This document shows positions 4,615 through 42,026 of a stretch of DNA of 43,449 nt, one piece after another. The DNA comes from Escherichia phage CY1_Cui-2023, in sequence record OQ357823.1. One strand, given 5' to 3'. Each line of letters begins with the position of its first letter. The first letter of the stretch is position 1. Under the pieces are notes generated by a model that saw only the letters and a program-made list of their open reading frames with translations, made no database searches and was not told the origin of the DNA. The translations under genes were made by a program, and so were the position numbers.

Positions 4615-4682
4615 TTTCTTATTCCTTAGAATGTGCATTTCGTTTCGATGGAGTAATCATACCTCAACTGTGAGTTTTGTCT

Positions 4683-4943
4683 TTAGCAATTAATGCTATT
4701 CAACCACCTGTTATATTTATCCTTCTCATTGATTGCCTTTTCCAGTGACTTGAATCTTAAAAGTAGTGGCATGCAGTCAACACTCATAGTTAAGGATTCG
4801 TCGCAGCTATTTGAACCAGTCAGCCAAAGTGAGAAGTACTGTTGTTCGAGGCCGTAGTTCCTGTCTTTATTGACTCTAACGCTAACAACTTTGAATTTCA
4901 AACCTGCCAACTTAACCTTATCTATAAATTCTGACTTATTCAT
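4683..4943 (-). CDS. hypothetical protein, 86 aa
   Basis: ORF with AAGGAG SD 7 nt upstream of ATG 4943. Confidence 0.5.
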   Translation of the reverse strand: MNKSEFIDKVKLAGLKFKVVSVRVNKDRNYGLEQQYFSLWLTGSNSCDESLTMSVDCMPLLLRFKSLEKAINEKDKYNRWLNSINC

Positions 4944-4972: not shown

Positions 4973-5015
4973 ATAGTACATCACCAATGAAATTTGTCTT
5001 TAGCTATTCGTGCTG
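4973..5015 (-). promoter_or_regulatory. dyad-operator promoter (CAGCA-cgaat-AGCTA, minus strand) with -10-like TACTAT
   Basis: Dyad at 5001-5015 overlaps the last codons (STNS) of the Rha-like gene; -10-like hexamer 30 bp downstream on minus strand; precedes gene starting 4943. Confidence 0.45.
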
Positions 5016-5683
5016 CTTCTTTCCAGCAACGGCTTAATGTCGATACCAAGTTTATTCTCGATCAATCCTGCCAGTGCGTCAGTCTTCTCTTTAAGAGCGA
5101 AACATTGTGCTTCATACCTAAACCTTGCTTCCATTTCATCGGAACGTGATACCCAAGACTGCCGAGCTTCACAAGCGAGAAGGTCAAGCTTCTCGTCAAT
5201 GTTCTTATCCATAAGGAGGATTTCATTGATTCGCTGCTCCGCAACGATTCGCTGGCCAAGGTGAGCGTTCTGCGCATTAGCCACACCAAGCATCACGCGC
5301 GCTTCTTTTAGCTCATCAATACTCACCATCTGGCTGATTACTTCCGTTTGTTTGTTGATGGTGGACTGCATCTCTTTAAGCTTATTAAGAACCGCACGGC
5401 GAACAGACTTTGACTCACGCATTCCAACAAGAAGCATCTGTTCCATATTAAGCACTGGTGAGTTGATTGACTTTCTATAACCCCCTCTCCTCTCACTTTT
5501 GATTACGAAACTTTCGTAGTCAAACTCAAACCCCTCAAGCTCATCCTCTATCCTCTCAACAAAGTCATTGTGCCGAACATCAGATTCACCGGCAACTAAC
5601 CTCGCTGGGTTGATAACTTCATTCAAAAACTGATAACTGTTCATTTTTACATCTTCATTTAGTAGAGTTAGGTTCATTTTCAT
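5000..5683 (-). CDS. Rha-family phage regulatory protein (putative)
   Basis: N-terminal segment LNEVINPARLVAGESDVRHNDFVERI matches the Rha-domain pattern; track ORF begins with TTG at 5710, first in-frame ATGs at 5683/5677; start uncertain. Confidence 0.5.
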   Translation of the reverse strand: MKMNLTLLNEDVKMNSYQFLNEVINPARLVAGESDVRHNDFVERIEDELEGFEFDYESFVIKSERRGGYRKSINSPVLNMEQMLLVGMRESKSVRRAVLNKLKEMQSTINKQTEVISQMVSIDELKEARVMLGVANAQNAHLGQRIVAEQRINEILLMDKNIDEKLDLLACEARQSWVSRSDEMEARFRYEAQCFALKEKTDALAGLIENKLGIDIKPLLERSSTNS

Positions 5684-5782
5684 CTCTCTTCTGGTTTTTT
5701 CATGGCTCAAATCTGAGCCATCACTTTGGTTCCCAGCCTGAAATTTAGGTTGGATGACAGCACCATTGCCGCCACGCGCCTA

Positions 5783-5825
5783 AATATACCTAAAGATAGC
5801 CAGTTGTCTTTAGCAAATCGTGCTA
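5783..5825 (-). promoter_or_regulatory. dyad-operator promoter (TAGCA-cgatt-TGCTA) with -10 TATATT, for the Rha-like gene
   Basis: Dyad 5811-5825 read on minus strand; TATATT exactly 30 bp downstream (5788-5783). Confidence 0.5.
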
Positions 5826-5854
5826 TTTATCGACAATTTCACCATAAATCACAG

Positions 5855-6020
5855 TTACACGTAACCGATGTAACTCGATGTATACAATCTCATCCGCGGG
5901 AAATGATATACTCGCTGTTACGCCAATTTACGCATTGGTTACATTAAAATATCTATATATATCAACCTTTTACTCTTATTATTATTATTATATATATTAC
6001 TGTGTATATCATGTAACTAC
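5855..6020. repeat. intergenic control region with GTAAC/GTTAC motif cluster plus (TA)n and (ATT)5 microsatellites
   Basis: GTTACACGTAACCGATGTAAC, GTTACGCC, GGTTAC at 5862-5945; (TA)4-5 at 5953-5961; TTATTATTATTATTA at 5977-5991; CATGTAAC at 6010-6017; lies between divergent genes. Confidence 0.6.
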
Positions 6021-6511: not shown

Positions 6512-7477
6512 ATGAGCTTTAAAGTTTTTACGCGAGAGGAGCTAAGCAACGAGGCTTACCACGCTGAAACTGAACACATCTCAGGTAGCTCGCTTGTCGA
6601 GATTATCCAGGGATCACCAGCCAAGTGGAAGTTTAAGCAGCGCAACAATGATAGCAAGGCGCTTAAGTTCGGCACGCTAAGCCACACGATGATTTTAGAG
6701 CAAGATGTATTCGAAAAAGAATACCTTCGCGCAACAGACCTTGACTCGATTGAAGGCTTAATTACAAGTCAGTCTGGATTATCATCAGCACTTAAAAAAG
6801 TTGGTGTAGCTGGCACGTCAGGTAAGGGGTATAGCGAGCTTATAGAGATGATGTATCGATCTGGTGAGGATTGGCCCGTTGGATGGTTAATTGAGCAGCA
6901 GGAGAGCGCCCAGGCGCTTGCGGATGGTAAGGAGCTAGTTAGCGCAGTAGACTATGACAAGGTTGTAGCGATGCGTGAGGTCCTCTGCAACATTCCGGCG
7001 TATAATGCGATCGTGAACAGTAAGACGGCGCAGAAAGAGTTATCGATCTTCGGTGAGATTCTAGGAGTCGGCGTTAAGATTCGAATTGACCACGTTGATG
7101 TTGTTGATGGAGCAGTTCGGATCACAGATTACAAAACGACAGCAGACGCAAGCCCGGAAGGATTCGGTAAGTCAGCATTCAACCACGGATACCTTGCAAA
7201 AATGGCACTTCAGCGTGATCTGTTTGTGAAAGCATTCAACGAGAAGCGCAAGGTTGTTGTGGGGTTGCTGGCACAGGAGAAGGTGGAGCTATACTTACCA
7301 ATGCTGTACACCCTAACTGACGAACAGCTTCGCATTGGTCGTCTCCAGTATCTTGAGGCACTTGCCACTTACAAGAAGTGCAAGGAGCTAGATATCTGGC
7401 CTGGGTACTCGAACGGCATAACAGAGCAAGAACTACTAGTCCCTGAGTGGGCTCTAAAGCAATACAAAGAAATCTAA
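6512..7477 (+). CDS. PD-(D/E)XK recombination exonuclease (lambda Exo/YqaJ-like)
   Basis: Motif IDHVDVVDGAVRITDYKTT resembles the D...D/E-x-K nuclease core; SD AAGGGGTGAG; immediately upstream of erf. Confidence 0.65.
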   Translation: MSFKVFTREELSNEAYHAETEHISGSSLVEIIQGSPAKWKFKQRNNDSKALKFGTLSHTMILEQDVFEKEYLRATDLDSIEGLITSQSGLSSALKKVGVAGTSGKGYSELIEMMYRSGEDWPVGWLIEQQESAQALADGKELVSAVDYDKVVAMREVLCNIPAYNAIVNSKTAQKELSIFGEILGVGVKIRIDHVDVVDGAVRITDYKTTADASPEGFGKSAFNHGYLAKMALQRDLFVKAFNEKRKVVVGLLAQEKVELYLPMLYTLTDEQLRIGRLQYLEALATYKKCKELDIWPGYSNGITEQELLVPEWALKQYKEI

Positions 7478-7478
7478 A

Positions 7479-7521
7479 CAGCACGAATTGCTAAAACAAA
7501 ACGGGATGACTTAGGTATAGT
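7479..7521 (+). promoter_or_regulatory. dyad-operator promoter (CAGCA-cgaat-TGCTA) with -10 TATAGT
   Basis: Dyad 7479-7493; -10 at 7516-7521 exactly 30 bp from dyad centre; leader AATCAACAACGAACGAGG precedes ATG 7551. Confidence 0.55.
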
Positions 7522-10187: not shown

Positions 10188-10252
10188 TGTAAAGTCTCCG
10201 TTTGTAAAATAGCACTAATTGATAAAATTCATTCTACCATCTTTCAGGCAAT

Positions 10253-11196: not shown

Positions 11197-11236
11197 AAAA
11201 AAGCCCTCGCATTTAACTTGAGGGCATTATACATAC

Positions 11237-11719
11237 TCATTCAGATCTTTCTTTAGCTTTTCGTGCGGCTTCGTTGGCAATCTTATTCTTTCGCCATGGT
11301 CGACAGGGTGGCTTTGTTGCTAGTTCTGCATCGGTAACTACGCGAAGCATATGGCGCTTCTTGCATCGAAGTGTTAGCGGTTTTCCGTTTCCGTCGAATT
11401 GCAGGTCTGGTCGGCAGAATGTAGCTCGAAATCCCTCCTTATTTCGCTTGTACGCATTATGTGCTCGCTGAGCCCCTCGAGCCGAAATCATACCGCGGTT
11501 AAACCATTCCGATACAGCTTGGTTGGACACATTTAACTGCTTTGCGATGTTCGCCTTTGTACCGTAGAAATCAAGAACCATCTCCAGGCGAGCACGTAGC
11601 CCAGCCTTTACCTCATCTTTCAATACGTAGTAGCCTGATGGTCGTTTGCGTTGCTTTTTGTCTTTTGTGCGCACGGTTCCGTTATTGCCGTTAATAGTTC
11701 GCTTGTCGATTTCACACAT
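11237..11719 (-). CDS. putative HTH DNA-binding protein (Cro/YdaS-like), 160 aa
   Basis: Segment KQLNVSNQAVSEWFNRG resembles a helix-turn-helix recognition helix; basic N-terminus. Confidence 0.45.
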   Translation of the reverse strand: MCEIDKRTINGNNGTVRTKDKKQRKRPSGYYVLKDEVKAGLRARLEMVLDFYGTKANIAKQLNVSNQAVSEWFNRGMISARGAQRAHNAYKRNKEGFRATFCRPDLQFDGNGKPLTLRCKKRHMLRVVTDAELATKPPCRPWRKNKIANEAARKAKERSE

Positions 11720-11732
11720 CTCATTACCTCAA

Positions 11733-11774
11733 TAGCACTTTTTGTTAAACAATGGGTTCGATGGCTGTTATTAT
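11733..11774 (+). promoter_or_regulatory. dyad-operator promoter (TAGCA-ctttt-TGTTA) with -10 TATTAT, for helicase gene
   Basis: Dyad 11733-11747; -10-like hexamer 11769-11774. Confidence 0.5.
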
Positions 11775-11815: not shown

Positions 11816-13810
11816 ATGCTTCCAGTAGAACGCTTAGTGGCAAACTTTGACCAAGAAAAGATTAAGCAGATTCAGAGAGACTATCAGTTTGGAGATATTA
11901 CGCCGTATCCATTCCAGTGCGTGACATTCGACCAAATCGGCAAGAATATTGCTAAGTACGAAGCTCCGTTCATCGCAGACCTGTCTGTATCGGCTGGCAA
12001 GACAATCATTATTGCCATGATTGGTAAACGCATGGAGCAACTTGGCCTTCCTTATATGGTACTTTCTCGCCAGTCTGAAATTATCAGTCAGAACGCTGAA
12101 GAACTTCTCAACTTTGGCATTCGTAATAGCGTATATTGCGCTGGCCTTAACGTTAAATCAGTTTATTACCCAACCATAGTGGCTAGTGAAGGAACGGCTG
12201 CCAATGGATTGTTTAAGGGTCTTGGTGACTATGTTCCTGCGGTTATCGCAATAGATGAGGCACACATGGTGGACCACATGGATATCGTAGAAGCTGAAGA
12301 GAACGAAGAGACATTTGAGCAAATGAGCACCAAGAAAGGCGAAATGGTTTTCAAGGATGGAGTGAATACCGGATTGCTTGGAACTGGTCGTGCGCAGTAC
12401 ACACTAATCATCACTGAAATGAAGCGCCGCTGCAAAGAGAAGTATGGTCGCGAGCTCCGTATATTCGGCTTGACTGGTAGCCCGTATCGTAACAACGACC
12501 ACATTGTAGTTAGTAACCCAAATATTCGTGGCTTCTGGCGCAAGACGGTAATGCAAGTTCCGACCAGTTACCTGGTTGATTTGGGATTCGTTGTTCCAAC
12601 TGTTTACGGTGAGGTTGGTGATTTGGGTTATGACCTTAGCGAGTTTGCACCTGATGGAAGTGATGGCGTTAAGGATTTCAGCAAAAAAGAAATGGATGCA
12701 ATGGCTGCAAAGATTCACGAAAACCAGACGATGACACAAAAGATAATGGGGTTCGTTATCAAAATACTTGAAACACGTAACGCCGCACTGGTAACTTGCG
12801 CTGGTAAAATGCACTGCGATGAAGCGGCTGCTGCTCTACCCGATGGTTATCCTTACGCGATAATCACTGATTCCACTGGTGAGAAGAAGAGAAGGGAAAT
12901 TCTAGATGAATGCCAGACCGGAAAGTACAAGATTATTTTTCAGATTGGATGCTTAACCACAGGCGTTTCGGTGCCTCCGTGGGACACAAGTGTCATACTC
13001 CGCAAGATTGGAAGCCTGACATTAATGATTCAGCTTCTTGGTCGTGGAATGCGAATTCTCAAGAAGAAACATATTGAAATTGGTATGAAAAAGGATGACC
13101 ACTTAGTCCTGGACTTTGCTGGCGCACTTGATGATATGGCTGAACTTTACTTTGATCCAATAATTGAAGAGATTCAGGCCGAGAAGTTTAAGTCATCACG
13201 CAATGGTGATTCAGATGTTCGAGTGTGCCCAATTTGCTCATACGAGAATTCGCCTTTTGCTCGTAGATGCGGAAATAAGATTGACGGAAAGAGATGTGAG
13301 CACTTCTTTACTTTTACAGTTTGTGAAGATATTACAGACCTGCAGACAAAGGCTATTATCAAAAAAGGGTGCGGGACTCGCAATGATATAGCAGCGAAGG
13401 TCTGTCGAGAGTGCGGAGAGATGCTTAAAGACCCCAATGCTAACCTTACAGGTAAGATGTATCGTCGTGGTGATTACCTTCGTGTTTATGATTTTCAAGT
13501 TGGCTTAAGTAAGAATCAAACCGGAATTGTTGTTAAGTACAATATCATGGCTCATAACGGAGATCGGTTTAATGCATGGGAATTCTTCAACCCCGAGTCT
13601 GACCATCGAGTTTGCAGCGTGCTATGGAAGAACTTCTGCCTTGCTCATATAGAGAATCGCGCTGAAGCCACAAGAATTGGCAGACTTCGCAATGCGAGAA
13701 TGATTATGACGAACGTAGATAAGTTCCGCGCACCAGTGCAGGTTACACATAGAAAAAACGGCAAAGGTAAAGATATAATCGCTTTTAAGAATTTTGGAGA
13801 ATTGTTATGA
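11816..13810 (+). CDS. SF2 DNA helicase (DEAH-box) with C-terminal zinc ribbon
   Basis: Walker A-like SVSAGKT, DEAH box (IDEAHMV), C-terminal CPIC...CGNK...C...CRECG cysteine cluster. Confidence 0.75.
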   Translation: MLPVERLVANFDQEKIKQIQRDYQFGDITPYPFQCVTFDQIGKNIAKYEAPFIADLSVSAGKTIIIAMIGKRMEQLGLPYMVLSRQSEIISQNAEELLNFGIRNSVYCAGLNVKSVYYPTIVASEGTAANGLFKGLGDYVPAVIAIDEAHMVDHMDIVEAEENEETFEQMSTKKGEMVFKDGVNTGLLGTGRAQYTLIITEMKRRCKEKYGRELRIFGLTGSPYRNNDHIVVSNPNIRGFWRKTVMQVPTSYLVDLGFVVPTVYGEVGDLGYDLSEFAPDGSDGVKDFSKKEMDAMAAKIHENQTMTQKIMGFVIKILETRNAALVTCAGKMHCDEAAAALPDGYPYAIITDSTGEKKRREILDECQTGKYKIIFQIGCLTTGVSVPPWDTSVILRKIGSLTLMIQLLGRGMRILKKKHIEIGMKKDDHLVLDFAGALDDMAELYFDPIIEEIQAEKFKSSRNGDSDVRVCPICSYENSPFARRCGNKIDGKRCEHFFTFTVCEDITDLQTKAIIKKGCGTRNDIAAKVCRECGEMLKDPNANLTGKMYRRGDYLRVYDFQVGLSKNQTGIVVKYNIMAHNGDRFNAWEFFNPESDHRVCSVLWKNFCLAHIENRAEATRIGRLRNARMIMTNVDKFRAPVQVTHRKNGKGKDIIAFKNFGELL

Positions 13811-14226
13811 AAGTTACAGACAAAACTGACTACCTCGAGTTCTATGGCGGCCCGGTGAAGTCATGCCCGAAGGAAGACGAAGAACAAATCTTTTGCTCTG
13901 ATTGGGTTAAGTATAACTATCCGCAGGTTGTTTACTGGCACACAGTTAATGAATCAATGAAGAGCATTGGTCAGGCAAGGAAAGACCAGGCTAAAGGACT
14001 TCTTAAAGGCGTATCAGACTGCCTATTTCTAATACCTGAGTCATTACGAGGAAGTTATCCATTTGGCGCAATAGAGCTAAAGAGGGCTGGGAAAACACAG
14101 GCTAGCCCAGTAAGTGATGAGCAAAAGTCATTCCTAAAAAGCGTAAGGGAATCAGGCGGTTTCGCAGGAGTTGCCTACGGCAGAGATGGTTTTCTTGCTG
14201 CATTCGCAGAGATGATTAGAAAATAG
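13807..14226 (+). CDS. VRR-NUC domain nuclease
   Basis: DCLFL...IELKRAGK...QKSFLKSVRESGGFAGVAYG matches the VRR-NUC PD-(D/E)XK pattern; ATGA overlap with helicase stop. Confidence 0.7.
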   Translation: MKVTDKTDYLEFYGGPVKSCPKEDEEQIFCSDWVKYNYPQVVYWHTVNESMKSIGQARKDQAKGLLKGVSDCLFLIPESLRGSYPFGAIELKRAGKTQASPVSDEQKSFLKSVRESGGFAGVAYGRDGFLAAFAEMIRK

Positions 14227-14266
14227 CACGAATTGCTAAAGACGAATTGATGAAGTGGTGTATTAT
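14224..14266 (+). promoter_or_regulatory. dyad-operator promoter (TAGCA-cgaat-TGCTA) with -10 TATTAT
   Basis: Dyad 14224-14238 overlaps the TAG stop of the VRR-NUC gene; -10 at 14261-14266; leader ATCGAAACGAAAC. Confidence 0.55.
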
Positions 14267-14304
14267 CACTTCATCGAAACGAAACACACGAAGAGAGAAA
14301 GAAA

Positions 14305-14851: not shown

Positions 14852-15090
14852 TAGTTGAAACAGGAAGGGCCGCGGTCTGGACCCACTGCGCAGAGGCTGG
14901 GCTTCAGGATGACATTAAGATGATATCTAAGTATTTTGATATAAAAGATATCAGCGTTATTTTCAACGGTAAATTTACGTACATGGATGAAAGGCCGCGC
15001 AAGTATGTCAGGGTTAAGCCTGGCGTAACGATAGACACAAATGAGTTCCTGAAAGAGCAGGGATTCAAATTTAAGATAACGAAGGGTTAG
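14848..15090 (+). CDS. hypothetical protein, 80 aa
   Basis: ORF, ATGA coupling with previous small ORF. Confidence 0.45.
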   Translation: MIVETGRAAVWTHCAEAGLQDDIKMISKYFDIKDISVIFNGKFTYMDERPRKYVRVKPGVTIDTNEFLKEQGFKFKITKG

Positions 15091-15344: not shown

Positions 15345-15425
15345 AGTACGCCGTCCTAGTAGCATTAGTACCACTGTTTAGCTTTACTATCTTATATTTT
15401 ATCGTGATGAACTAAGGATTTGAAA

Positions 15426-16559
15426 ATGACAGTAGCAAAGATTACCAACGATCAGCTAATCGAAGAACTTAAAAACGGCATGACTAACAAGGCGATTGCG
15501 GAGAAGTACGACATGAACATTCGCAACGTTGAACTTCGTCGCAGTAAGTTAGCTAAGAGTGGTTTGTTTGGGCATGGCAATGATGGTATCAAGAAGTTAG
15601 TGCCGGACGGCTATTTAGTCAAGGGTACTTCAACCATGATTGATGCGGATGGGAATGAGAAGCTGCGCTGGGTTAAGACGAGCGTTGATAATGAACGCCT
15701 TGAAATTATGCTCGAGCAAGCGCGAGAGGCTTTCTGTTCTGAGTTGCCAAAGTGTGAGGAAGTTAAGCATTCAGGCAAAGATACAAACCCTGACCTAATG
15801 ACACTGTATCCAATTTTCGACATACATATTGGAATGATGGCCCATCGCCACGAGTCTGGTGAAAATTATGACACGGCAACGGCAGAAAAACTAATGGGCT
15901 CATACTTTGACCATGCAATATCAGTTTCGCCAGCTTCAGAAAAGGCAGTCATCCTTGTTGGCGGTGATTATCTCCACTCAGATGGTCTTGAGGCGGTAAC
16001 TCCAGCTAGTGGCCACTGCCTTGACCAAGATAGCCGTTACGCTAAGTTAGTCTACATCGCAATTAGATCAATTCGTGGCGCTGTAGAAAAGATGCTTAAA
16101 AAGCATAAAAGTGTTGACATTCAAATTATCGAGGGAAATCATGACCAAAGCGGCATGATCTGGCTTCGGGCTGCGATGGCTGCATTTTATGAAAATGAGA
16201 GTCGTGTCTTTGTTGATGTAAGCCCTGCGATTATGCACAAGACAAGATTTGGCTCAACACTACTTGGCTACACTCATGGTCACACAATGAAGAAAGCGGA
16301 AGGTAGACTTGCAGCTATGGCAACCGATTACAGGAAAGACTTTGGTGAATGCGAGTTCGTTTATTGCCATTCCGGGCATTTTCACCACGCAACAGTAACA
16401 GAGTGCACTCTTGGTATTGACGAAGTACATCCAGCACTAGCAAGCAAGGATGCGTATGCAGCACGAGGGGGGTGGCGCTCATATCGTCAGGCTGCCGCGA
16501 TTGTTTATCACAAAGAGTTTGGCGAGGTTGGTCGTCATATCTATCGACCTGGAATGTAA
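15426..16559 (+). CDS. calcineurin-like metallophosphoesterase with N-terminal HTH-like extension
   Basis: Motifs DIHIG, GGDYLHSDG, EGNHDQ, GHT, GHFHH in the canonical metallophosphatase order; N-terminal ~120 aa contains TNKAIAEKYDMNIRNVE; AGGA SD before ATG 15426. Confidence 0.65.
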   Translation: MTVAKITNDQLIEELKNGMTNKAIAEKYDMNIRNVELRRSKLAKSGLFGHGNDGIKKLVPDGYLVKGTSTMIDADGNEKLRWVKTSVDNERLEIMLEQAREAFCSELPKCEEVKHSGKDTNPDLMTLYPIFDIHIGMMAHRHESGENYDTATAEKLMGSYFDHAISVSPASEKAVILVGGDYLHSDGLEAVTPASGHCLDQDSRYAKLVYIAIRSIRGAVEKMLKKHKSVDIQIIEGNHDQSGMIWLRAAMAAFYENESRVFVDVSPAIMHKTRFGSTLLGYTHGHTMKKAEGRLAAMATDYRKDFGECEFVYCHSGHFHHATVTECTLGIDEVHPALASKDAYAARGGWRSYRQAAAIVYHKEFGEVGRHIYRPGM

Positions 16560-16563
16560 TAAA

Positions 16564-16606
16564 TAGCACTTTTTGTTAAGAAATCCCAGAGAAATCTGGG
16601 TATATT
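16564..16606 (+). promoter_or_regulatory. dyad-operator promoter (TAGCA-ctttt-TGTTA) with -10 TATATT
   Basis: Dyad 16564-16578; hairpin CCCAGAGAAATCTGGG in the spacer; -10 16601-16606; leader AATCAAACACAAACGAGATGG. Confidence 0.55.
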
Positions 16607-17234: not shown

Positions 17235-17789
17235 ATGAAAAAGTTAATCATCCTTAATGGACCCCCAGGTGCTGGAAAAGATACAGTTGCAGATATCATT
17301 GTTAAACTTGGAATTTGCAAGGATAAGGTTTCTTTCAAATCACCTATGTTTAATGTGGCTAAGAGCATGCTATCAAGCGATGAGTTTGATGGATTTATTA
17401 AGAATTACGATGATCGAGAGTACAAAGAATCACCACATGAATTTCTTGGTGGAATGACTGTTCGTCAATTTATGATTTGGATTAGCGAATCAGTGATGAA
17501 GCCAGTTTTTGGTGATGAGGTTTTCGGTAAAAGGCTAGCTCAGTCTCTTGGCAATGGTTGCCACATCTGTTCAGATGGTGGATTTGCAAGTGAAATTGAG
17601 CCACTAATTGAAAGTGGTGTTGAGGTTACATTGGTTAGGCTTCATAGACCTGGTTACACTTTCGAAGGAGATAGTAGGTCATACATTAGCGGCCTCTGCG
17701 CAAGGGAAATTGATATTGATGTTATTGAAGGTGATATTAAAATAACTACAGAAAAAGTGATTGATGCAATAAATAGCACGAATCGCTAA
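17235..17789 (+). CDS. deoxynucleoside monophosphate kinase (T4 gp1-like P-loop kinase)
   Basis: N-terminus KKLIILNGPPGAGKDTVADII and internal VTLVRLHRPG parallel T4 dNMP kinase. Confidence 0.6.
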   Translation: MKKLIILNGPPGAGKDTVADIIVKLGICKDKVSFKSPMFNVAKSMLSSDEFDGFIKNYDDREYKESPHEFLGGMTVRQFMIWISESVMKPVFGDEVFGKRLAQSLGNGCHICSDGGFASEIEPLIESGVEVTLVRLHRPGYTFEGDSRSYISGLCAREIDIDVIEGDIKITTEKVIDAINSTNR

Positions 17790-17816
17790 ACAATCGCCAC
17801 AGCAATTAGGTATAAT
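17774..17816 (+). promoter_or_regulatory. dyad-operator promoter (TAGCA-cgaat-CGCTA) with consensus -10 TATAAT
   Basis: Dyad 17774-17788 lies inside the last codons (NSTNR-stop) of the kinase gene; TATAAT at 17811-17816; leader AATCGAAAACAACAGAGG. Confidence 0.55.
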
Positions 17817-17847
17817 CACCAAATCGAAAACAACAGAGGATTCAAAA

Positions 17848-18021
17848 ATGACTAAACTATACTGCGTGAAAAACAACTCAAAGACGCTTCCGTTTACTGA
17901 GAATCAGCCATACAGCGGCGAGCATCTTGGTAGCGGTTACTACAAGATTTATGGCGACGATATGACTCACATCCTTGCGCCGATTGATGGCTCTTTGGTG
18001 GAATTTATTATCGCAGATTAA
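17848..18021 (+). CDS. hypothetical small protein, 57 aa (below ORF-track cutoff)
   Basis: ATG 17848 with SD AGAGGA; translation MTKLYCVKNNSKTLPFTENQPYSGEHLGSGYYKIYGDDMTHILAPIDGSLVEFIIAD. Confidence 0.4.
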   Translation: MTKLYCVKNNSKTLPFTENQPYSGEHLGSGYYKIYGDDMTHILAPIDGSLVEFIIAD

Positions 18022-18047
18022 CACATCAAAAACATAGTTTTACAAGT

Positions 18048-18073
18048 GGGGGGCCTTTTGGCTCCCCTTTTTT
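18048..18073 (+). terminator. intrinsic terminator ahead of the lysis cassette
   Basis: GGGGGGCC-TTTT-GGCTCCCC hairpin followed by TTTTTT. Confidence 0.7.
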
Positions 18074-18077
18074 GTGC

Positions 18078-18106
18078 TTACAATCCGAACTGGCCTACTG
18101 TATTAT
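18078..18106 (+). promoter_or_regulatory. sigma70-type promoter for the lysis cassette
   Basis: TTACAA (18078-18083), 17-nt spacer, TATTAT (18101-18106), about 45 nt upstream of holin ATG. Confidence 0.45.
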
Positions 18107-18149
18107 ATTTACACTATCTATTGACAAATTAGGATTTAAAGGTGATCAC

Positions 18150-18365
18150 ATGAGGGAAGTACTTAACGCCGCCACGGCATCAACTGGCGGGGCTGCTGTA
18201 ACTGGCGCCGCAACTGGTCAAATCACAGTCGCAATAATCAGCCTTGTAGCTCTTATCGTTTTTGGGTTATGGGGGTCTTACTGGAAGTTTAAGGATAGCC
18301 AGGCGATTCGACGAGCACTTGAATCAGGAGACTTAAAAACAGCAATCAAGATAAGGAGTAAGTAA
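18150..18365 (+). CDS. holin (single-TMD, pinholin-like), 71 aa
   Basis: AGGTGA SD before ATG 18150; hydrophobic helix ITVAIISLVALIVFGLWG then charged C-terminus; immediately upstream of endolysin. Track ORF starts earlier at a non-ATG codon. Confidence 0.55.
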   Translation: MREVLNAATASTGGAAVTGAATGQITVAIISLVALIVFGLWGSYWKFKDSQAIRRALESGDLKTAIKIRSK

Positions 18366-21167: not shown

Positions 21168-21197
21168 TACTTCTCTCCGTATTGTTTCTGAGCGGCC

Positions 21198-21240
21198 ATT
21201 ATATCAACAGCCGCTTATAATGCATTATCAATTCGTGCTG
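21198..21240 (-). promoter_or_regulatory. dyad-operator promoter variant (CAGCA-cgaat-TGATA) with consensus -10 TATAAT, for the 527-aa gene
   Basis: Dyad 21226-21240 on minus strand; TATAAT (reverse complement of 21198-21203) exactly 30 bp downstream. Confidence 0.5.
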
Positions 21241-21594
21241 CTATTTGTAAGATGATTCAAATAGGTAAGTCTGGCAAAGAGTGTAGAAACCAACATCTTC
21301 GCTTCGATATAGCTGCCATGCATTACCATCTTCGTCGTAAATGTAACCAGCAGACTGACCCATCCCGCTATGCATTAGCACCTGGTATCTCTTTCCTTCT
21401 TTGAAATCCTTCTTAACGCCAGATTTGTGGTTAACATGTGTCACGTAAAGCGTTCTGGTCTTAATGTATTTACCACGTTCTTCCAGATTAACCCATTTGC
21501 CATCTTTCTTGATTTGCTCGACACCATCTTTAACGCGAGCTTTAAACAGTTGGTTGTCTTTGCTAATGAAATTTTTAGTTATGGTAGTAGTCAT
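21241..21594 (-). CDS. hypothetical protein, 117 aa
   Basis: ORF; ATG overlaps the stop of the upstream small ORF. Confidence 0.5.
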   Translation of the reverse strand: MTTTITKNFISKDNQLFKARVKDGVEQIKKDGKWVNLEERGKYIKTRTLYVTHVNHKSGVKKDFKEGKRYQVLMHSGMGQSAGYIYDEDGNAWQLYRSEDVGFYTLCQTYLFESSYK

Positions 21595-21758: not shown

Positions 21759-21790
21759 GATTACTTGTTCTCTTTCGTTTCGATGAGGAA

Positions 21791-21833
21791 ACTATACAAC
21801 AAAAGCCCCGAAGGGCTTTAGCAATTCGTGCTA
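21791..21833 (-). promoter_or_regulatory. dyad-operator promoter (TAGCA-cgaat-TGCTA) with -10 TATAGT and a terminator-like hairpin in the spacer
   Basis: Dyad 21819-21833; hairpin AGCCC-CGAA-GGGCT 21804-21817; TATAGT (reverse complement of 21791-21796); leader CATCGAAACGAAAGAGAAC before ATG 21758. Confidence 0.5.
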
Positions 21834-21979
21834 TTTCTCGCCTTCTCAATCGCCTTAAGCATAATCTCGTGAGATTCAAGCAAGTCCTCGTTGAACCATT
21901 CCCCGCAAGGCCAGCCCTTGCCGCTGTAAGAACTAATAACTTCCAGATCAAAATAGTTAATCTCAGATGGTAATAGCAT
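21818..21979 (-). CDS. hypothetical small protein, 53 aa (below ORF-track cutoff)
   Basis: ATG 21979 with SD AGGTGA; translation MLLPSEINYFDLEVISSYSGKGWPCGEWFNEDLLESHEIMLKAIEKARNSTNC; last four codons and stop lie inside the dyad operator. Confidence 0.4.
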   Translation of the reverse strand: MLLPSEINYFDLEVISSYSGKGWPCGEWFNEDLLESHEIMLKAIEKARNSTNC

Positions 21980-22599: not shown

Positions 22600-22643
22600 A
22601 TTATGGTCCCGTCGCCAATGTTTGTCATTAGCAAAAAGTGCTA
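22600..22643 (-). promoter_or_regulatory. dyad-operator promoter (TAGCA-ctttt-TGCTA) with -10 CATAAT
   Basis: Dyad 22629-22643 on minus strand; CATAAT (reverse complement of 22600-22605); leader ATCAACAACGAGGAGAGAGAT before ATG 22572. Confidence 0.5.
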
Positions 22644-22660
22644 TTCGTTGGGTTTATGTA

Positions 22661-22757
22661 TTATTGCAGTTATTGCAATGATTCATCTCATTATTGCACA
22701 TATAGCAATATTGCATCTGATGCAATGATGTTTTTGATTGTTGCAGAATTTGCAATT
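22661..22757. repeat. array of at least 7 short TTGCA/TATTGCA iteron-like repeats
   Basis: TTATTGCA at 22661, 22670, 22691; ATATTGCA 22708; TGCAAT 22721; TTGCA 22741 and 22750; direct and inverted copies within about 100 bp. Confidence 0.6.
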
Positions 22758-22829
22758 ATTGATGTGATGGTGAATGAATGGTGGATGGACTACCATACAA
22801 GTTGATTTTTATTCTGGCCGAGCCATTTT

Positions 22830-23215
22830 GCCGCATACACGTAACCGGCGTAGCGCGATGTAAGCCAACCACTATCGTTACGCGAGTTACGCGAAGCTAC
22901 GCCTAGACTTACACTATAAGTACTTAATATATATATATATCTTCTTTCTATTATTATTATTATTATTATTATTATTGTATGTAAGTCATGTAACGGGTGT
23001 TCTTCTGCTATATATATGTTTTTTCCTATCAGAGTACATATCTGCAATTTTATGGAAGAAATAGCCAGTATTGGGCAACCCCACCCAATTTATGCGTTAC
23101 AGGCGTTACCACAAACTACATTTAGCTATAGCTTGGCTAGGATGCCATTTCGCGTAACCACACCTAAAAGTTACCAAAAATTACACTTGATTACGTGTGT
23201 AAGTCGATATATGAT
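22830..23215. repeat. AT-rich control region with CGTAAC/GTTACG clusters, (TA)7 and (ATT)9 microsatellites
   Basis: ACGTAACCGG, CGTTACGCGAGTTACGCGA at 22840-22890; (TA)7 22927-22940; (ATT)9 22950-22976; CATGTAAC 22988-22995; GCGTTACAGGCGTTACC, GCGTAACC, AGTTACC, ATTACGTG at 23093-23207. Confidence 0.6.
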
Positions 23216-23246
23216 GGATTCAACCTAAACGAGAGGAGTGATAAAC

Positions 23247-23767: not shown

Positions 23768-24250
23768 ATGAATATCGCCAGGCAAGATGGACTTTCGCCA
23801 GTCAGAATCGTAATAAATGCAAATGGGTATCGTCAGTCAACGCCATTCTGGGGTTCGATTGATACGTCAGATGTGTACTCAGGTGATGAGCTTGGTGTGC
23901 TAATTAAAATCATCAGGAAGATGGGAGTTAACGGGAAAGGAGTGGTTGGTGTCAGGTCTGTATATGAAGGAGCTCGAAAGGTTAAGCCTTTTGTTGGGCG
24001 TAATGGAGTGATGTTGCTCATCAAGGACAAGCTAATCCCAGAGCTCGACAAGATGAATGTTACATGTCTAATTGGCGATAAGGTTTATGTTCACCCCGCA
24101 ATACTAAATGAGTGTTTGGAGCCTAACTTCAAGGTCTACGAAGGTAAGCATCCTAGTAGACTACCATACCACTTGCGGTACAGCGAGGAAGAGGTTGAGG
24201 CGGCGATGGAGTTTTATCGGGAAGCTAAATTACTCCTGAATGGACAATAG
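23768..24250 (+). CDS. mini-paralog of the 527-aa P-loop protein (N- plus C-terminal segments only); upstream in-frame ATG 23726 is cut off by an amber codon
   Basis: Residues align with the N-terminus (RVAINANGYRQS) and C-terminus (GKGVVGVRS..ARKVKPF...TCLIGDK.Y) of the 19584-21167 product; the reading frame is continuous from ATG 23726 except for TAG at 23759-23761. Confidence 0.45.
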   Translation: MNIARQDGLSPVRIVINANGYRQSTPFWGSIDTSDVYSGDELGVLIKIIRKMGVNGKGVVGVRSVYEGARKVKPFVGRNGVMLLIKDKLIPELDKMNVTCLIGDKVYVHPAILNECLEPNFKVYEGKHPSRLPYHLRYSEEEVEAAMEFYREAKLLLNGQ

Positions 24251-24290
24251 CACGAATTGCTAAACAATCGCCGGAGAAATCCGGCATAAT
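24248..24290 (+). promoter_or_regulatory. dyad-operator promoter (TAGCA-cgaat-TGCTA) with -10 CATAAT
   Basis: Dyad 24248-24262 begins in the TAG stop of the mini-paralog; hairpin CCGGAGAAATCCGG in spacer; -10 24285-24290; leader ATCGACAACACGATGG. Confidence 0.55.
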
Positions 24291-24870: not shown

Positions 24871-25029
24871 ATGGATAACTACGAAAAACCAAGCCAGTGG
24901 GCTAAGAGAATGATGGATGATGCTGAGACTGGCGAGATTGCCATGATGTACTTTGAGTTAATGAATATCTGGAAAGAGCGTGAGGAAAAGTGTGGTCTAA
25001 ATAAGGGCGAGGATAAGAAAAGTGCTTAA
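24871..25029 (+). CDS. hypothetical small protein, 52 aa
   Basis: ATG 24871 to TAA 25027-25029; weak SD; translation MDNYEKPSQWAKRMMDDAETGEIAMMYFELMNIWKEREEKCGLNKGEDKKSA. Confidence 0.3.
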   Translation: MDNYEKPSQWAKRMMDDAETGEIAMMYFELMNIWKEREEKCGLNKGEDKKSA

Positions 25030-25180
25030 CACATGTTTATTCCCGAAATGTGATGAATTTGTTGAGGATTTAATCTACTTCAATGAGAAATACGGTGACA
25101 CGTTTGAGTGCGATGGCGATACAGACGAAGTATTAGCAACTTTTGATAGAGGGCCAGATGTAGACAGCACGAATAGCTAA
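25022..25180 (+). CDS. hypothetical small Cys-containing protein, 52 aa, GTG start (tentative)
   Basis: GTG 25022 preceded by GAGGAT SD; ends DSTNS-stop inside the dyad operator like several other genes; overlaps previous ORF in another frame. Confidence 0.25.
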   Translation: MLNTCLFPKCDEFVEDLIYFNEKYGDTFECDGDTDEVLATFDRGPDVDSTNS

Positions 25181-25207
25181 ACGTGACAGGCATTGATGCC
25201 ATATAAT
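25165..25207 (+). promoter_or_regulatory. dyad-operator promoter variant (CAGCA-cgaat-AGCTA) with consensus -10 TATAAT
   Basis: Dyad 25165-25179; hairpin GGCATTGATGCC in spacer; TATAAT 25202-25207; leader AATCAAACAACGAGAGG. Confidence 0.55.
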
Positions 25208-25901: not shown

Positions 25902-25977
25902 GTTCTGCTGGCGTAACAGGATAACGCAAAGACCTCCTAAGTCTTAGTTGCTGGTTCGAGTCCAGCGCGGAACACCA
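25902..25977 (+). tRNA. tRNA-Arg (anticodon CCU)
   Basis: Hand-folded cloverleaf: acceptor GTTCTGC/GCGGAAC (one G-U), D-arm GCGT-AACAGGATA-ACGC, anticodon arm AAGAC-CTCCTAA-GTCTT (CCT at 25936-25938), T-arm GCTGG-TTCGAGT-CCAGC, discriminator A plus encoded CCA; 76 nt. Confidence 0.8.
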
Positions 25978-26298: not shown

Positions 26299-26823
26299 AT
26301 GAAAGACGAAAACTTCACCAGCCAGGCGCAAGAAAAGATTCGCTCTGGCAACTTCAAAGCCATGTACAACAAAAAGTATTCTGACATTACAACTCTGTCC
26401 AAAAACCGAATAATGACCCCAGAGCAGCTATTCGACCTGGCCGTGAAATACTTCTCATGGGCTGAGAGCCAGGCAATCAAGGCAATTGAGACAGCCAGCT
26501 TCCAGGGTGTCGTAACCGAGAATCTGGTGCACAAGCCACGAGTCTTCACACTAACAGGATTCTGCCTTTACTGCGGTGTTACCCATAGCGCAATAGAGAA
26601 ATGGAGGAAGTCGGCGGGTTATGACGAGGTAATTGCATTCATTGATTCCGTGATTCGCGAGCAGAAGTATCAGCTGGCAGCGTCTGGCATTGTTAACCCT
26701 GGCATGATTTCCAAAGAACTTGGCATCGATAAGCCGCAGGAGATTACTATAAGCAATAACTCTTCAGCTAACGACGTTGGCACGATGAAGGAAGCGCTGG
26801 AGTCTGTGATTAGTAAGCTGTAG
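26299..26823 (+). CDS. terS: terminase small subunit
   Basis: 174-aa ORF with strong SD AAAGGAGG, positioned immediately upstream of the HNH and large terminase genes. Confidence 0.6.
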   Translation: MKDENFTSQAQEKIRSGNFKAMYNKKYSDITTLSKNRIMTPEQLFDLAVKYFSWAESQAIKAIETASFQGVVTENLVHKPRVFTLTGFCLYCGVTHSAIEKWRKSAGYDEVIAFIDSVIREQKYQLAASGIVNPGMISKELGIDKPQEITISNNSSANDVGTMKEALESVISKL

Positions 26824-26862
26824 CACTTTTTGTTAAAAGAAGAGGCCCAATCAATGAGATAA
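26821..26862 (+). promoter_or_regulatory. dyad-operator promoter (TAGCA-ctttt-TGTTA) with -10 GATAAT, upstream of HNH gene
   Basis: Dyad 26821-26835 overlaps terS stop; -10-like GATAAT 26857-26862 sits in the loop of hairpin GGCCCA...TGGGCC. Confidence 0.45.
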
Positions 26863-26891
26863 TGGGCCCAACAAACTAGCGAGGTGATCAT

Positions 26892-32046: not shown

Positions 32047-32991
32047 ATGGCCATTAAATTTGATGCAGAACAAGCAAAAATCACCGCTCACCTAGAGCAA
32101 ATGGGCGTAGATAAGGCTGATGCTGCTGGTATCTGGACCGTTAAGCAGTTAACCGCATCACTGAATCGCGCTTACGAAAAAGAATACGCAGACAACTCAG
32201 TTGTCAACATCTTCCCAGTAACCAACGAAATCCCTGGTCACGCGAAATACTTCGAATACCCTGAGTTCGATGGTGTTGGTATTGCTCAGATCATCGCTGA
32301 TTACTCTGACGACCTGCCGCTGGTTGATGCTTTCATGACCGAGAAGCAGGGTAAAGTATTCCGCTTCGGTAATGCGTTTATGATCTCAGTTGATGAGATT
32401 AAAGTTGGCGCTGCTACTGGTCAGTCACTGTCCGCTCGCAAACAGGCTTTGGCTTTTGAAGCTCACGACAACCTGCTTGATAAACTGGTATGGTCTGGCT
32501 CTGCACCTCACGGCATCGTAGGCGTATTTAACCAGCCGAACATCAACAACGTTGTTGCAACTCCAAACTGGAGCAATCCAATTAACGCGGTTAACGACGT
32601 TACCGCAATGATTGATGCTGTAGAAACCAGCACACAGGGCTTCCACCATGTAACTGACATTCTGCTGCCAGCTTCCGCTCGCCGTGTAATGCAGCGCCTT
32701 GTTGATAATACAACCCTGAGCTATGGCGAGTTGTTTACTCGTAACAACCCAGGTGTAACCCTGCGCTTTATGCAGTTCCTGGATAACTACGATGGTGCTG
32801 GCGGTAAAGCTGCGCTGGCGTTTGAAAAGGATCCGCTCAACATGAGCATCGAGATTCCGGAAGTTACAAACGTTTTACCTGGTCAGCCTCGTGATCTTCA
32901 CTTCCGCTTCCCTGTAACCTCTAAGGCGACAGGTTTGATTTTATATCGCCCTCTTACAGTGGCAGCTATCAAAGGAATTACCTTTGCCTAA
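32047..32991 (+). CDS. major capsid protein
   Basis: 314-aa ORF with SD AAGGAA, positioned after portal/scaffold/decoration genes; abundant-protein-like codon usage. Confidence 0.7.
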   Translation: MAIKFDAEQAKITAHLEQMGVDKADAAGIWTVKQLTASLNRAYEKEYADNSVVNIFPVTNEIPGHAKYFEYPEFDGVGIAQIIADYSDDLPLVDAFMTEKQGKVFRFGNAFMISVDEIKVGAATGQSLSARKQALAFEAHDNLLDKLVWSGSAPHGIVGVFNQPNINNVVATPNWSNPINAVNDVTAMIDAVETSTQGFHHVTDILLPASARRVMQRLVDNTTLSYGELFTRNNPGVTLRFMQFLDNYDGAGGKAALAFEKDPLNMSIEIPEVTNVLPGQPRDLHFRFPVTSKATGLILYRPLTVAAIKGITFA

Positions 32992-33034
32992 TAGCACTAA
33001 ATGACAAAACAATACCACCGAAAGGTGGTATTTT
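32992..33034 (+). promoter_or_regulatory. degenerate dyad operator (TAGCA-ctaaa-TGACA) with terminator hairpin in spacer, upstream of second HNH gene
   Basis: Dyad 32992-33006 right after capsid stop; hairpin ACCACC-GAAA-GGTGGT plus TTTTT 33013-33035; weak -10 TATTTT 33029-33034; leader CATCAAAACAATGGAGG. Confidence 0.35.
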
Positions 33035-35688: not shown

Positions 35689-36348
35689 ATGGCCCATCTC
35701 AGCAATGGCACCCAGGTCTTCGTAGAGGGCACTAGGGGTAATACTATCGACGTAACAGCAATTACCAATGCTGTTGCTCCTGTTTTAACTTTGTCCGACG
35801 CCACAGGTATTGCGCGCGGGGATTACCTGCTGTTCACCAGCTCAGCTTCAACACTTCTGGCTGATAAGCAAGTTCGTGTCACCGCGGTATCTGGTTCGGA
35901 CGTAACTGTTGAAGGTATTGATACCTCCAACAACACTAAGTTTCCAGCCGGTTTAACTGGTGAAGTAGTTAAGATTCTTAGCTGGTTTGAAGTTCCTTGT
36001 GTTCAGGATGTATCCACTGACGGCGGCGAACAGCAGTTCGTTAACTTCCAGTGTTTATCTGATGACCGCGAGCAACAGATTCCAACCTATAAGTCTGCGG
36101 TAACTAACACCTACACGTTCGCGCACGAATACACCAACCCGGTATATCCGATTCTGCGTAACTATGATGAGTCTGGTCAGGTTGTTGCTATCCGTCTGTT
36201 CGTGCCTCGCGCTAGTGAGATGCGACTTCAGTCTGGCACTATCTCTTTCAACGACACCCCGAGCATTGGTGTTAACGAAATCGAAACGGTATCCATCGCG
36301 GTATCCATCCGTGGTAGGCTGAGTTCTGTGGCTTCTGAGCTAGTATAA
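35689..36348 (+). CDS. major tail protein
   Basis: 219-aa ORF with SD AAAGGAAA, followed by a strong terminator and then the chaperone and tape-measure genes. Confidence 0.65.
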   Translation: MAHLSNGTQVFVEGTRGNTIDVTAITNAVAPVLTLSDATGIARGDYLLFTSSASTLLADKQVRVTAVSGSDVTVEGIDTSNNTKFPAGLTGEVVKILSWFEVPCVQDVSTDGGEQQFVNFQCLSDDREQQIPTYKSAVTNTYTFAHEYTNPVYPILRNYDESGQVVAIRLFVPRASEMRLQSGTISFNDTPSIGVNEIETVSIAVSIRGRLSSVASELV

Positions 36349-36375: not shown

Positions 36376-36379
36376 TTGA

Positions 36380-36422
36380 TAGCACTTTTTGTTAAAGACG
36401 TGTGGCAGGGATTTGCTATTAT
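36380..36422 (+). promoter_or_regulatory. dyad-operator promoter (TAGCA-ctttt-TGTTA) with -10 TATTAT
   Basis: Dyad 36380-36394; -10 36417-36422; leader ATCGAAACGAGATGG before ATG 36462. Confidence 0.5.
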
Positions 36423-41790: not shown

Positions 41791-42000
41791 ATGAAAAGTA
41801 AATTTATTGAATGCGTAAGATCTAGCGAATACTGGAATTTGACTATTGGTGATATCTACACTTTAAATCTCGATGGAGATGAGTCAGAATTATTCATAAA
41901 AGATGACATGGGAACAAAGCTACACCTTGAATACCTTCCTGAGTCATCAATGCTAAGCTTAATTGCGGACCATGATTGTATTTTCACTCATATCGATTAA
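41791..42000 (+). CDS. hypothetical protein, 69 aa (moron-like insert between L and K)
   Basis: ORF with its own SD in a separate intergenic island between two otherwise adjacent tail genes. Confidence 0.45.
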   Translation: MKSKFIECVRSSEYWNLTIGDIYTLNLDGDESELFIKDDMGTKLHLEYLPESSMLSLIADHDCIFTHID

Positions 42001-42026
42001 AACAAAGCAAGATTAGTGTTAAACTA

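Follow-up and report, generated by a model that had tools for sequence, protein, structure and literature searches.

The 43,449-nucleotide stretch of DNA analysed here in its full length (the window; Escherichia phage CY1_Cui-2023, sequence record OQ357823.1) is a nearly complete genome of a T1-like siphovirus, with 99.7% identity over 12 kb to Escherichia phages TR2 and TR3 (Drexlerviridae, Braunvirinae). Its open reading frame (ORF) at 17235-17789 encodes an ATPase-like protein, a homolog of T1 gp62, and ends in the codons AAT AGC ACG AAT CGC TAA, which give the C-terminal residues NSTNR. The last part of this gene, 17773-17789, reads ATAGCACGAATCGCTAA and lies within a repeated 20-bp element, hereafter the box, which stands at the head of promoters throughout the genome and on which many of the preceding genes come to an end. 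In this report, we mainly focus on how the box shapes these gene ends, on the promoter cassette to which it belongs, and on the proteins that may read it.

Gene ends and boxes coincide repeatedly across the window. Five genes stop at the TAA of a box, namely 17235-17789 (NSTNR), 21818-21979(-) (NSTNC), 5000-5710(-) (SSTNS), 25022-25180 (DSTNS), and 4683-4943(-) (NSINC), with the tails STNR, STNC, STNS, STNS, and SINC, respectively. Three further genes stop at the TAG of a box (at 14224, 24248, and 26821), one reads through it (11237-11719(-)), and four (6512-7477, 15420-16559, 21241-21594(-), and 32047-32991) stop 0-5 nt before it. An earlier, sequence-only reading of this DNA had named the four STN tails and the three TAG stops, and every one of these cases was verified; its count was nevertheless an underestimate, as it missed the NSINC gene, whose box is a variant, and the read-through gene, and the four genes that stop shortly ahead of a box come in addition. 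In a set of 64 box promoters from four genomes (the window, T1, ACG-M12, and EC3a), the upstream gene stops at the TAG of position 2 in 19 cases, at the TAA of position 15 in 10, at box position 8 in two, and 0-9 nt before the box in 17; at four sites the stop lies more than 9 nt upstream, at most seven genes read through, and five sites have no upstream ORF of at least 45 amino acids. Overlap between gene end and box is the rule in the T1-like family, and to a large extent the ending of genes inside the box follows from its sequence: two of the three frames are closed within it, one by TAG (positions 2-4) and another by TAA (positions 15-17). A gene entering the box in the first of these frames meets an immediate stop, one in the second is forced to end in Ser-Thr-Asn followed by Cys, Ser, or Arg, and one in the remaining frame reads through as Ala-Arg-(Ile/Lys)-Ala-Lys.

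The origin of the tails is shown by homologs of the 17235-17789 protein, 47 of which, at 25-53% identity, were taken from the IMG/VR database. A perfect box stands at the gene end in 36 of the 47: 28 of these genes stop at the position-2 TAG and have unrelated tails (FINK, KIK, YLK, and AAFE), and the remaining eight stop at the position-15 TAA and all end in NSTNC. The 11 homologs that have no box at the gene end, a comparison that the sequence-only reading had proposed as a check, finish in EDILSD, EDILK, EDIME, and similar residues, and the STN tail is absent from all 11. The same pattern of tails was found in seven other gene families (those of the nuclease, the regulator, and the small terminase, and four families of small genes), so that the earlier proposal of a regulatory motif written into coding sequence and dictating C-terminal tails is borne out in eight gene families, STN appearing only where the reading frame enters the box. 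Since homologs carry STN only upon such entry and none does so without a box, it is the DNA motif that imposes the tail.

Comparison of 31 distinct gene ends leads in the same direction, with 91% identity in the 20-nt box, as against 40% in the preceding 60 coding nucleotides and 47% in the spacer. That four to five unrelated proteins of one genome share an STN-type tail might suggest selection at the protein level, for instance for a shared degradation or targeting tag, with the likeness in DNA being secondary. We give this explanation almost no credence, and the homolog comparison rules it out: homologs that use another frame or have no box possess no such tail, the nucleotide identity at gene ends continues past the stop codon, and the box DNA is also conserved where it is non-coding (5807-5826, 11732-11751, 22625-22644, and 36379-36398) or read in other frames. 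Tight packing of the genome places the box on the end of the preceding gene, and we are highly confident that such packing accounts for the position of the box and that the tails are by-products of a DNA motif rather than functional peptides. Where a compact genome uses a motif with stop codons in it, an overlap of this kind is only to be expected.

The box itself forms the upstream half of a cassette of constant layout, the standard promoter of T1-like phages. The 9-mer AGCACGAAT occurs in the window in eight exact copies, each followed by (T/C/A)G(C/A)TAA, and in 26 copies when up to one mismatch is allowed, compared with 11.5 expected and with a number that none of 100 shuffles reaches. A TATAAT-like hexamer lies exactly 27 nt after the exact AGCACGAAT copies, always on the side of the downstream gene. 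A wider scan of the window yielded about 18 box sites, 16 of them with a -10 hexamer, and the cassette comprises the 20-bp box A(T/C)AGCAC-N4-TG(C/T)TAAA, an 18-bp spacer (17 or 19 bp at two deviating window sites), the -10 hexamer, and, beyond it, the conserved sequence (c)ATCGAAACGA of the start region. Between 14 and 39 nt past the -10 come a ribosome-binding site and the start codon; start codons lie about 70-85 nt downstream of box position 1. The extended consensus of the box is aaATAGCAC(GAAT/TTTT)TG(C/T)TAAA, with two subtypes, GCACGAATTGCTAAA and GCACTTTTTGTTAAA. Across the 64 sites, G4 and A17 are invariant (64/64 each), followed by Y15 (62/64), A18 and Y2 (60/64 each), C7 (59/64), Y14 (57/64), A1 (56/64), and A0 (53/64). 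The orientation is equally constant, the -10 lying 18 bp downstream of the box in 64 sites versus the mirrored position in four. At the -35 position, the phage promoters offer only TAAA(C/A/G)N, 17-18 bp from the -10 and matching TTGACA at 2-4 of its six positions. In most box promoters of the four genomes, the start region, more fully (c)ATCGAAACGA(a/g), lies approximately 7-20 nt past the -10 (e.g., 17823-17832, 14273-14284, and 21773-21784(-)); the transcription start and a 5′ leader common to these promoters probably lie within it. From this conserved region we infer a start about 7 nt after the -10, with the box centre near -41.

In sequence, the box closely resembles the marbox, the site for the monomeric, two-helix-turn-helix activators MarA, SoxS, and Rob. 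The 19-nt marbox consensus AYnGCACnnWnnRYYAAAY finds four perfect matches and 11 with at most one mismatch in the window, versus 0.0 and 0.9 in shuffled sequence, and both box subtypes fit the marbox derived from chromatin immunoprecipitation, gcannwwntgnnaaa, at 15 of 15 positions. The positions that were not used for site selection (A1, Y2, C7, Y14, and Y15) obey the consensus as well, with the exception of position 19. The marbox of mar, ATGCCACGTTTTGCTAAATC when written forward, is identical to a T1 site at 15 of 20 positions, and that of micF in E. coli MG1655, ACAGCACTGAATGTCAAAAC, ends 18 bp before the -10 TAGAAT, with the spacing and orientation of the phage sites. A class II marbox promoter is defined by a forward site that overlaps the -35 region (PMC12052159); the phage box faces forward over this region, with its AAA element at about -35 to -33. 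The marbox is built from an A site, GCAC, and a B site, CAAA, and the micF site is centred at -41.5 (PMC9638938, PMC9178005, PMC8811837). The bases contacted in the structure of Rob and RNA polymerase on micF are G-47 and A-45 (PMC9178005), and G4 and A6 of the phage box coincide with them if transcription starts at the conserved A. The phage promoters thus share with class II MarA/SoxS/Rob promoters of E. coli such as micF a 20-bp asymmetric forward box with GCAC and (Y)AAA over the -35 region, an 18-bp distance to the -10, and a -35 hexamer that in the phage appears weak or absent. Unlike these promoters, which serve a stress regulon, the phage carries about 16 near-consensus copies in a 43-kb virulent genome, where they serve nearly all transcription units, overlap the upstream stop codon, and have A or G rather than Y at position 19.

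A MarA or SoxS homolog was not found in the window by tblastn (best E 0.18), and a Pfam scan of 40 small or unknown window proteins gave no match to HTH_18 or HTH_AraC, and a phage-encoded MarA homolog in the window was rejected on these grounds. Because the phage has no AraC-family gene, MarA, SoxS, or Rob of the host is proposed as the activator. In this model, the activator would work in the class II mode known from micF, replacing the contact of sigma-70 region 4 with the -35 and recruiting RNA polymerase, and host proteins, most plausibly the constitutively abundant Rob, would fire some 16 promoters that seem to lack a proper -35 hexamer. Constitutive, high-level expression of Rob has been reported (PMC9178005). 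We lean slightly towards the box being a class II marbox read by host MarA, SoxS, or Rob; whether nearly all transcription of T1-like phages, and of Pantoea myoviruses of the genus Dibbivirus, would start from consensus class II marbox promoters fired by these host proteins is in our judgement evenly balanced. The box is identical in phages of Escherichia, Klebsiella, Shigella, Salmonella, Citrobacter, Enterobacter, and Cronobacter, and the well-documented hosts of box-bearing phages are all Enterobacterales.

Several points weigh against this host-activator model, which has been assembled from sequence throughout. T1-like phages thrive on unstressed laboratory E. coli, in which MarA and SoxS are low and much of Rob is held inactive, and the model therefore requires that the basal activity of Rob be enough at near-consensus sites. 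At position 19, the box mostly has A or G where the marbox consensus has Y, and the 18-bp class II spacing was checked on a single E. coli promoter, micF. Furthermore, the phage has a conserved helix-turn-helix gene of its own, present in 830 phage records, whose product could bind the dyad of the box near -42, the position of lambda cI at PRM. Some GenBank records of box-bearing T1-like phages name a Campylobacter or Pseudomonas host, and such hosts, if real, would be without MarA, SoxS, or Rob. About 20 of these records give Campylobacter jejuni and one gives Pseudomonas syringae; a G+C content of 44% and near-identity to coliphages suggest that these hosts were mis-assigned.

Evidence that points both ways comes from Pantoea phage AAM37 (NC_048766), a Dibbivirus myovirus outside Drexlerviridae that possesses a T1-like helicase/regulator/primase module and boxes at 13485, 16363, 18320, 20214, and 22721, with the same stop overlaps and the tails STNS and GTNS. 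Its gene at 17910-18320, which has a box at its own end and stops at the position-2 TAG, encodes a 136-residue, MarA-sized protein of the AraC family, gp49 (Pfam HTH_18, E 1.8e-14), and AraC-family genes of such kind are rare in phages (24 of 50,697 records). However, gp49 has no equivalents of the base-contacting MarA residues W42, Q45, and R46 and may not be a reader of GCAC; the co-occurrence of box and AraC-family gene, though suggestive, was therefore given little weight, and gp49 was downgraded as proof of an AraC-type box reader.

Which other proteins might read the box depends in part on its symmetry. The label "dyad operator", under which the sequence-only reading had placed the element, does not stand, although the GAAT subtype does contain a perfect inverted repeat of 5+5 bp (TAGCA-N5-TGCTA) with a half-site spacing of 10 bp. 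Only TAGCA/TGCTA is symmetric, as C7, A17, A18, A1, and A0 are without mirror partners: symmetry of C7 would require G at position 11, where it occurs in 0 of 64 sites, and A17 and A18 would have to be mirrored by T at positions 1 and 0, which carry A instead. Whereas G4 is invariant, its dyad partner C14 is present in 42 of 64 sites (position 14 being T in 15 and A in 6), and the TTTTT subtype GCACTTTTTGTTAAA has TGTTA, which breaks the dyad. Asymmetric conservation, one orientation, and one box-to--10 spacing therefore mark an asymmetric promoter or activator element rather than a repressor operator. An RNA hairpin formed by the dyad was also rejected, since the fold at 17773-17789 does not improve on that of shuffled sequences (z = 0.0) and the only Rfam match in the window is a tRNA. 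These features bear directly on the possibility that the box is bound by the phage's own Cro/CI-like regulator (11237-11719(-), a homolog of T1 gp23) as a dimer on TAGCA-N5-TGCTA near -42, either activating, as lambda cI does at PRM from OR2, or repressing. The inverted repeat of the GAAT subtype would suit such a dimer, and the regulator is the sole DNA-binding candidate among the 40 small or unknown proteins and a core gene, found in its 830 phage records at no less than 52% identity. The layout around the gene resembles autoregulation, with a box separating the regulator gene from the divergent helicase gene, and T1 has TTGAAT-17-TATAAT facing the box, for the regulator gene; the most distant phage with a homolog, AAM37, carries the box too, which may, however, reflect the shared replication module. 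Against this stand not only the asymmetric conservation, the broken dyad of the TTTTT subtype, and the strict orientation, but also the regulator's own sequence, whose Pfam helix-turn-helix match lies below the family cut-off and whose presumed recognition helix begins with SNQ in the window and T1, THA in ACG-M12, and PFS in AAM37, the box consensus remaining unchanged. Divergence between the T1 and window regulators was set aside as an argument, as it is not decisive at 55% identity and with a similar helix, ACG-M12 and AAM37 being more informative. A phage-specific site would moreover match a host consensus at every specified position, with the spacing of micF, by coincidence. The lambda parallel itself is partial: cI at PRM likewise uses a site near -42, contacts sigma region 4, and acts in a divergent region beside the regulator gene, but lambda operators are symmetric, few, and part of a temperate switch, unlike the roughly 16 asymmetrically conserved boxes of a virulent phage. 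A role of this regulator as the reader of the box appears unlikely to us, though among the competing explanations it is the most serious one.

Somewhat less probable still is a reading by another factor, either an unrecognised phage protein or RNA polymerase itself, for which the box would serve as an upstream element or an extended element of the -35 type. For many small phage proteins no family could be detected, the TAAA(C/A)A of some sites matches TTGACA at up to four of six positions at 18-bp spacing, and the authors of a study on phage TLS, who left the function of the repeat open, suggested UP-like or enhancer-binding roles (PMC11447400). Nevertheless, GCAC is not A/T-rich, so that the sequence does not fit a UP element, and the full marbox match and the micF geometry would be left unexplained. 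Other members of this class fail on sequence, spacing, and the Pfam scan. A sigma-54 promoter (TGGCAC-N5-TTGC) is contradicted by TAGCACG-N3-TTGC in the box, with AG instead of GG and TTGC 2 bp too close, and by the sigma-70 TATAAT-like -10 conserved 18 bp downstream. Middle promoters of T4 likewise form a phage-wide class in which a TGCT-containing box replaces the -35 and an activator is needed. The MotA box, however, has its centre at -30 and is separated from the -10 by 11-13 bp, whereas the phage TGCTAAA ends 20 bp from it, GCAC is essential, and none of the 40 proteins scanned matched the MotA or AsiA family in Pfam. The box as a repressor operator or "stoperator", silencing or blocking transcription and acting as a roadblock at gene boundaries, is highly improbable. 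Its appeal lies in a resemblance to the stoperators of mycobacteriophage L5, already noted for TLS (PMC11447400), the sites in both cases being many, asymmetric, located in short intergenic regions, and pointing one way along transcription. L5 stoperators, however, are targets of the repressor that the prophage of a temperate phage makes, and their position relative to a -10 is not constant, whereas the present phages are virulent, with no integrase or immunity repressor annotated, and their boxes stand in a fixed 18-bp relation to the -10, followed by the conserved start region and then a ribosome-binding site and start codon; this layout indicates that the box marks promoters rather than arbitrary roadblocks. 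Without the box, moreover, these promoters would have no -35 region element. On present sequence evidence, the favoured order of readers is therefore host MarA, SoxS, or Rob, then the phage regulator, and then another factor.

The element has been described before. Phage TLS carries 21 copies of a 21-nt direct repeat, aaATAGCACnnnTTGnTAAAA, co-oriented with transcription and located about 76 nt upstream of start codons, and the repeat was also noted in T1, Rtp, and Rogue1; the same paper, from 2024 and the only one to describe the repeat, reported only three sigma-70-like promoters and left the function of the repeat open (PMC11447400). The window answers to this description, with 16-18 copies of the consensus and start codons about 70-85 nt after box position 1, and the two elements are the same in consensus, in A/T/G subtypes, and in orientation along transcription. 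The marbox match, the fixed spacing to the -10, and the overlap with gene ends and resulting tails are not reported in the TLS paper. The literature searched, which did not include the 2004 T1 genome paper, held no link of Drexlerviridae or T1 to MarA, SoxS, or Rob, and the motif strings were not found in it. The repeat, then, is already known from TLS; what deserves interest and can be tested is its putative identity as a marbox. About 16-20 promoters of this type are present in T1, as in Klebsiella phage KP36, and all 46 Drexlerviridae-like loci in IMG/VR carry about 0.5 box sites per kb. Box plus TATAAT is confined in IMG/VR to Drexlerviridae-like contigs, apart from single chance matches in AT-rich contigs; one candidate outside the family was dismissed as an unrelated phage that shares only the ATPase gene. 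By BLAST, the box occurs in 3736 places in 1033 phage records. One copy each, matching at 22 of 23 nt and lying inside a hypothetical gene, was also seen in RB16-like 175-kb phages of Escherichia, Klebsiella, and Cronobacter (e.g., HM134276 (RB16), 92739-92761).

The individual sites of the window are as follows. At the ATPase gene, the box ATAGCACGAATCGCTAAACA (17773..17792 (+)), whose TAA at positions 15-17 (17787-17789) stops 17235-17789 with the tail NSTNR, heads the promoter for 17848-18021 and the lysis genes; its -10, TATAAT, lies 18 bp further on (17811..17816 (+)), and the A in caccaaATCGAAAAC is the probable transcription start. The position-15 TAA also terminates the upstream gene at four other sites: ATAGCATTAATTGCTAAAGA (4680..4699 (-); -10 TATGAT, 4656-4661; gene 4683-4943(-), tail NSINC), GCAGCACGAATAGCTAAAGA (4997..5016 (-); -10 TACTAT, 4973-4978; gene 5000-5710(-), tail SSTNS), ATAGCACGAATTGCTAAAGC (21815..21834 (-); -10 TATAGT, 21791-21796; gene 21818-21979(-), tail NSTNC), which has a terminator-like hairpin in its spacer, and ACAGCACGAATAGCTAAACG (25164..25183 (+); -10 TATAAT, 25202-25207; gene 25022-25180, tail DSTNS). 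The position-2 TAG stops the upstream gene at ATAGCACGAATTGCTAAAGA (14223..14242 (+); -10 TATTAT, 14261-14266; TAG 14224-14226, gene 13807-14226), where a 9-bp inverted repeat surrounds the -10, at ATAGCACGAATTGCTAAACA (24247..24266 (+); -10 CATAAT, 24285-24290; TAG 24248-24250, gene 23768-24250), and at GTAGCACTTTTTGTTAAAAG (26820..26839 (+); -10 GATAAT, 26858-26863; TAG 26821-26823), which closes the small terminase gene (26299-26823).

Genes end immediately ahead of the box at ACAGCACGAATTGCTAAAAC (7478..7497 (+); -10 TATAGT, 7516-7521), where the TAA of 6512-7477 directly abuts box position 1, at ATAGCACTTTTTGTTAAGAA (16563..16582 (+); -10 TATATT, 16601-16606), 3 nt downstream of the end of 15420-16559, and at GCAGCACGAATTGATAATGC (21222..21241 (-); -10 TATAAT, 21198-21203), whose position 1 is overlapped by the TAG of 21241-21594(-). 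The box GCCGCACGAAAAGCTAAAGA (11250..11269 (-); -10 TATAAT, 11226-11231), in the promoter of the primase gene, lies wholly within the 3′ end of the Cro-like regulator gene 11237-11719(-) and is read in its stop-free frame (AARKAKERSE at the C-terminus). Four boxes are free of such overlap: ATAGCACGATTTGCTAAAGA (5807..5826 (-); -10 TATATT, 5783-5788), divergent and intergenic without an upstream gene, in the promoter of 5000-5710(-); ATAGCACTTTTTGTTAAACA (11732..11751 (+); -10 TATTAT, 11769-11774, 17-bp spacer), between the divergently transcribed regulator and helicase genes; ATAGCACTTTTTGCTAATGA (22625..22644 (-); -10 CATAAT, 22600-22605, 19-bp spacer), in the first promoter of the leftward small-gene cluster; and ATAGCACTTTTTGTTAAAGA (36379..36398 (+); -10 TATTAT, 36417-36422), in the tail-gene region, where 35689-36348 ends 31 nt upstream. 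The box-like ATAGCACTAAATGACAAAAC (32991..33010 (+)) follows the major capsid gene (32047-32991), whose TAA overlaps its position 1, and is succeeded by a terminator hairpin and TATTTT, so that its status as a promoter is doubtful; the box-like ATAGCACTAATTGATAAAAT (10209..10228 (+)) has no usable -10 and is oriented against the local minus-strand genes. Perfect or near-perfect boxes that have no usable -10 or run against local transcription also occur in T1, at 15083(-), 18847(-), 34905(+), 8365(+), and 25024(+), and a box between the tail-fibre and primase genes is kept in both T1 and the window.

Two further kinds of structure accompany the cassettes. In 22 of the 64 promoters with a box, the -10 is surrounded by a 5-9-bp inverted repeat, whose first arm lies within the spacer and whose second follows the -10 immediately (permutation control: mean 10.2, maximum 18); the arms vary between promoters yet remain complementary, as in GATGAAGTG gtg TATTAT CACTTCATC. 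Examples are 14243-14275, 21190-21215(-), and 26840-26872 in the window, and 1453, 2272, 3538, 4347, 4867, and 47114 in T1. Such a repeat would place the -10 inside the loop of a hairpin or cruciform, which is not a classical terminator. At other promoters, a GC-rich hairpin lies entirely within the box-to--10 spacer (21797-21814(-), 16583-16600, and 33011-33028 in the window; 38973-39001, 39998-40024, 41980-42007, and 35930-35971 in T1). Several annotated "rho-independent terminators" of T1 correspond exactly to this spacer plus the T-rich -10, and terminator and next promoter are therefore interleaved. Elsewhere in the window, a tRNA gene at 25902-25974 (59.3 bits) is the sole Rfam match, the equivalent locus of TR3 being annotated as tRNA-Arg. 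A non-coding stretch of 590 bp (22650-23240) separates divergent clusters of small genes, and maps of related genomes start or finish there. It contains a 47-nt tandem duplication rich in ATTGCA/TTGCAA (22662-22755), an (ATT)n run (22950-22978) and (TA)n, several copies of CGTAAC/GTTACG, which recur at 5855-5880, and a canonical sigma-70 promoter, TTGATT-17-TATGAT (23187-23215).

Taken alone, the overlap of gene ends with the box is a small point, useful in annotation because it explains the STN(C/S/R) tails and marks promoter positions, and it calls for caution, as promoter DNA places constraints on these C-termini and on the "terminators" annotated between box and -10. The promoters themselves touch on an old question, namely how the T1 family is transcribed, since these phages encode no RNA polymerase or sigma factor and standard tools detect just a handful of sigma-70 promoters in them. 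If the host-activator model is true, phage development would be wired to the host regulon for antibiotic, oxidative-stress, and bile responses, and very common virulent phages of enterobacteria would depend on, and could sense, the multidrug-resistance and stress regulators of their hosts. The group concerned includes many candidates for the therapy of Klebsiella and E. coli infections as well as contaminants of fermentation, and the model, if correct, would bear on phage-antibiotic interactions, on the behaviour of phages in the bile-rich gut, and on a possible route to resistance.

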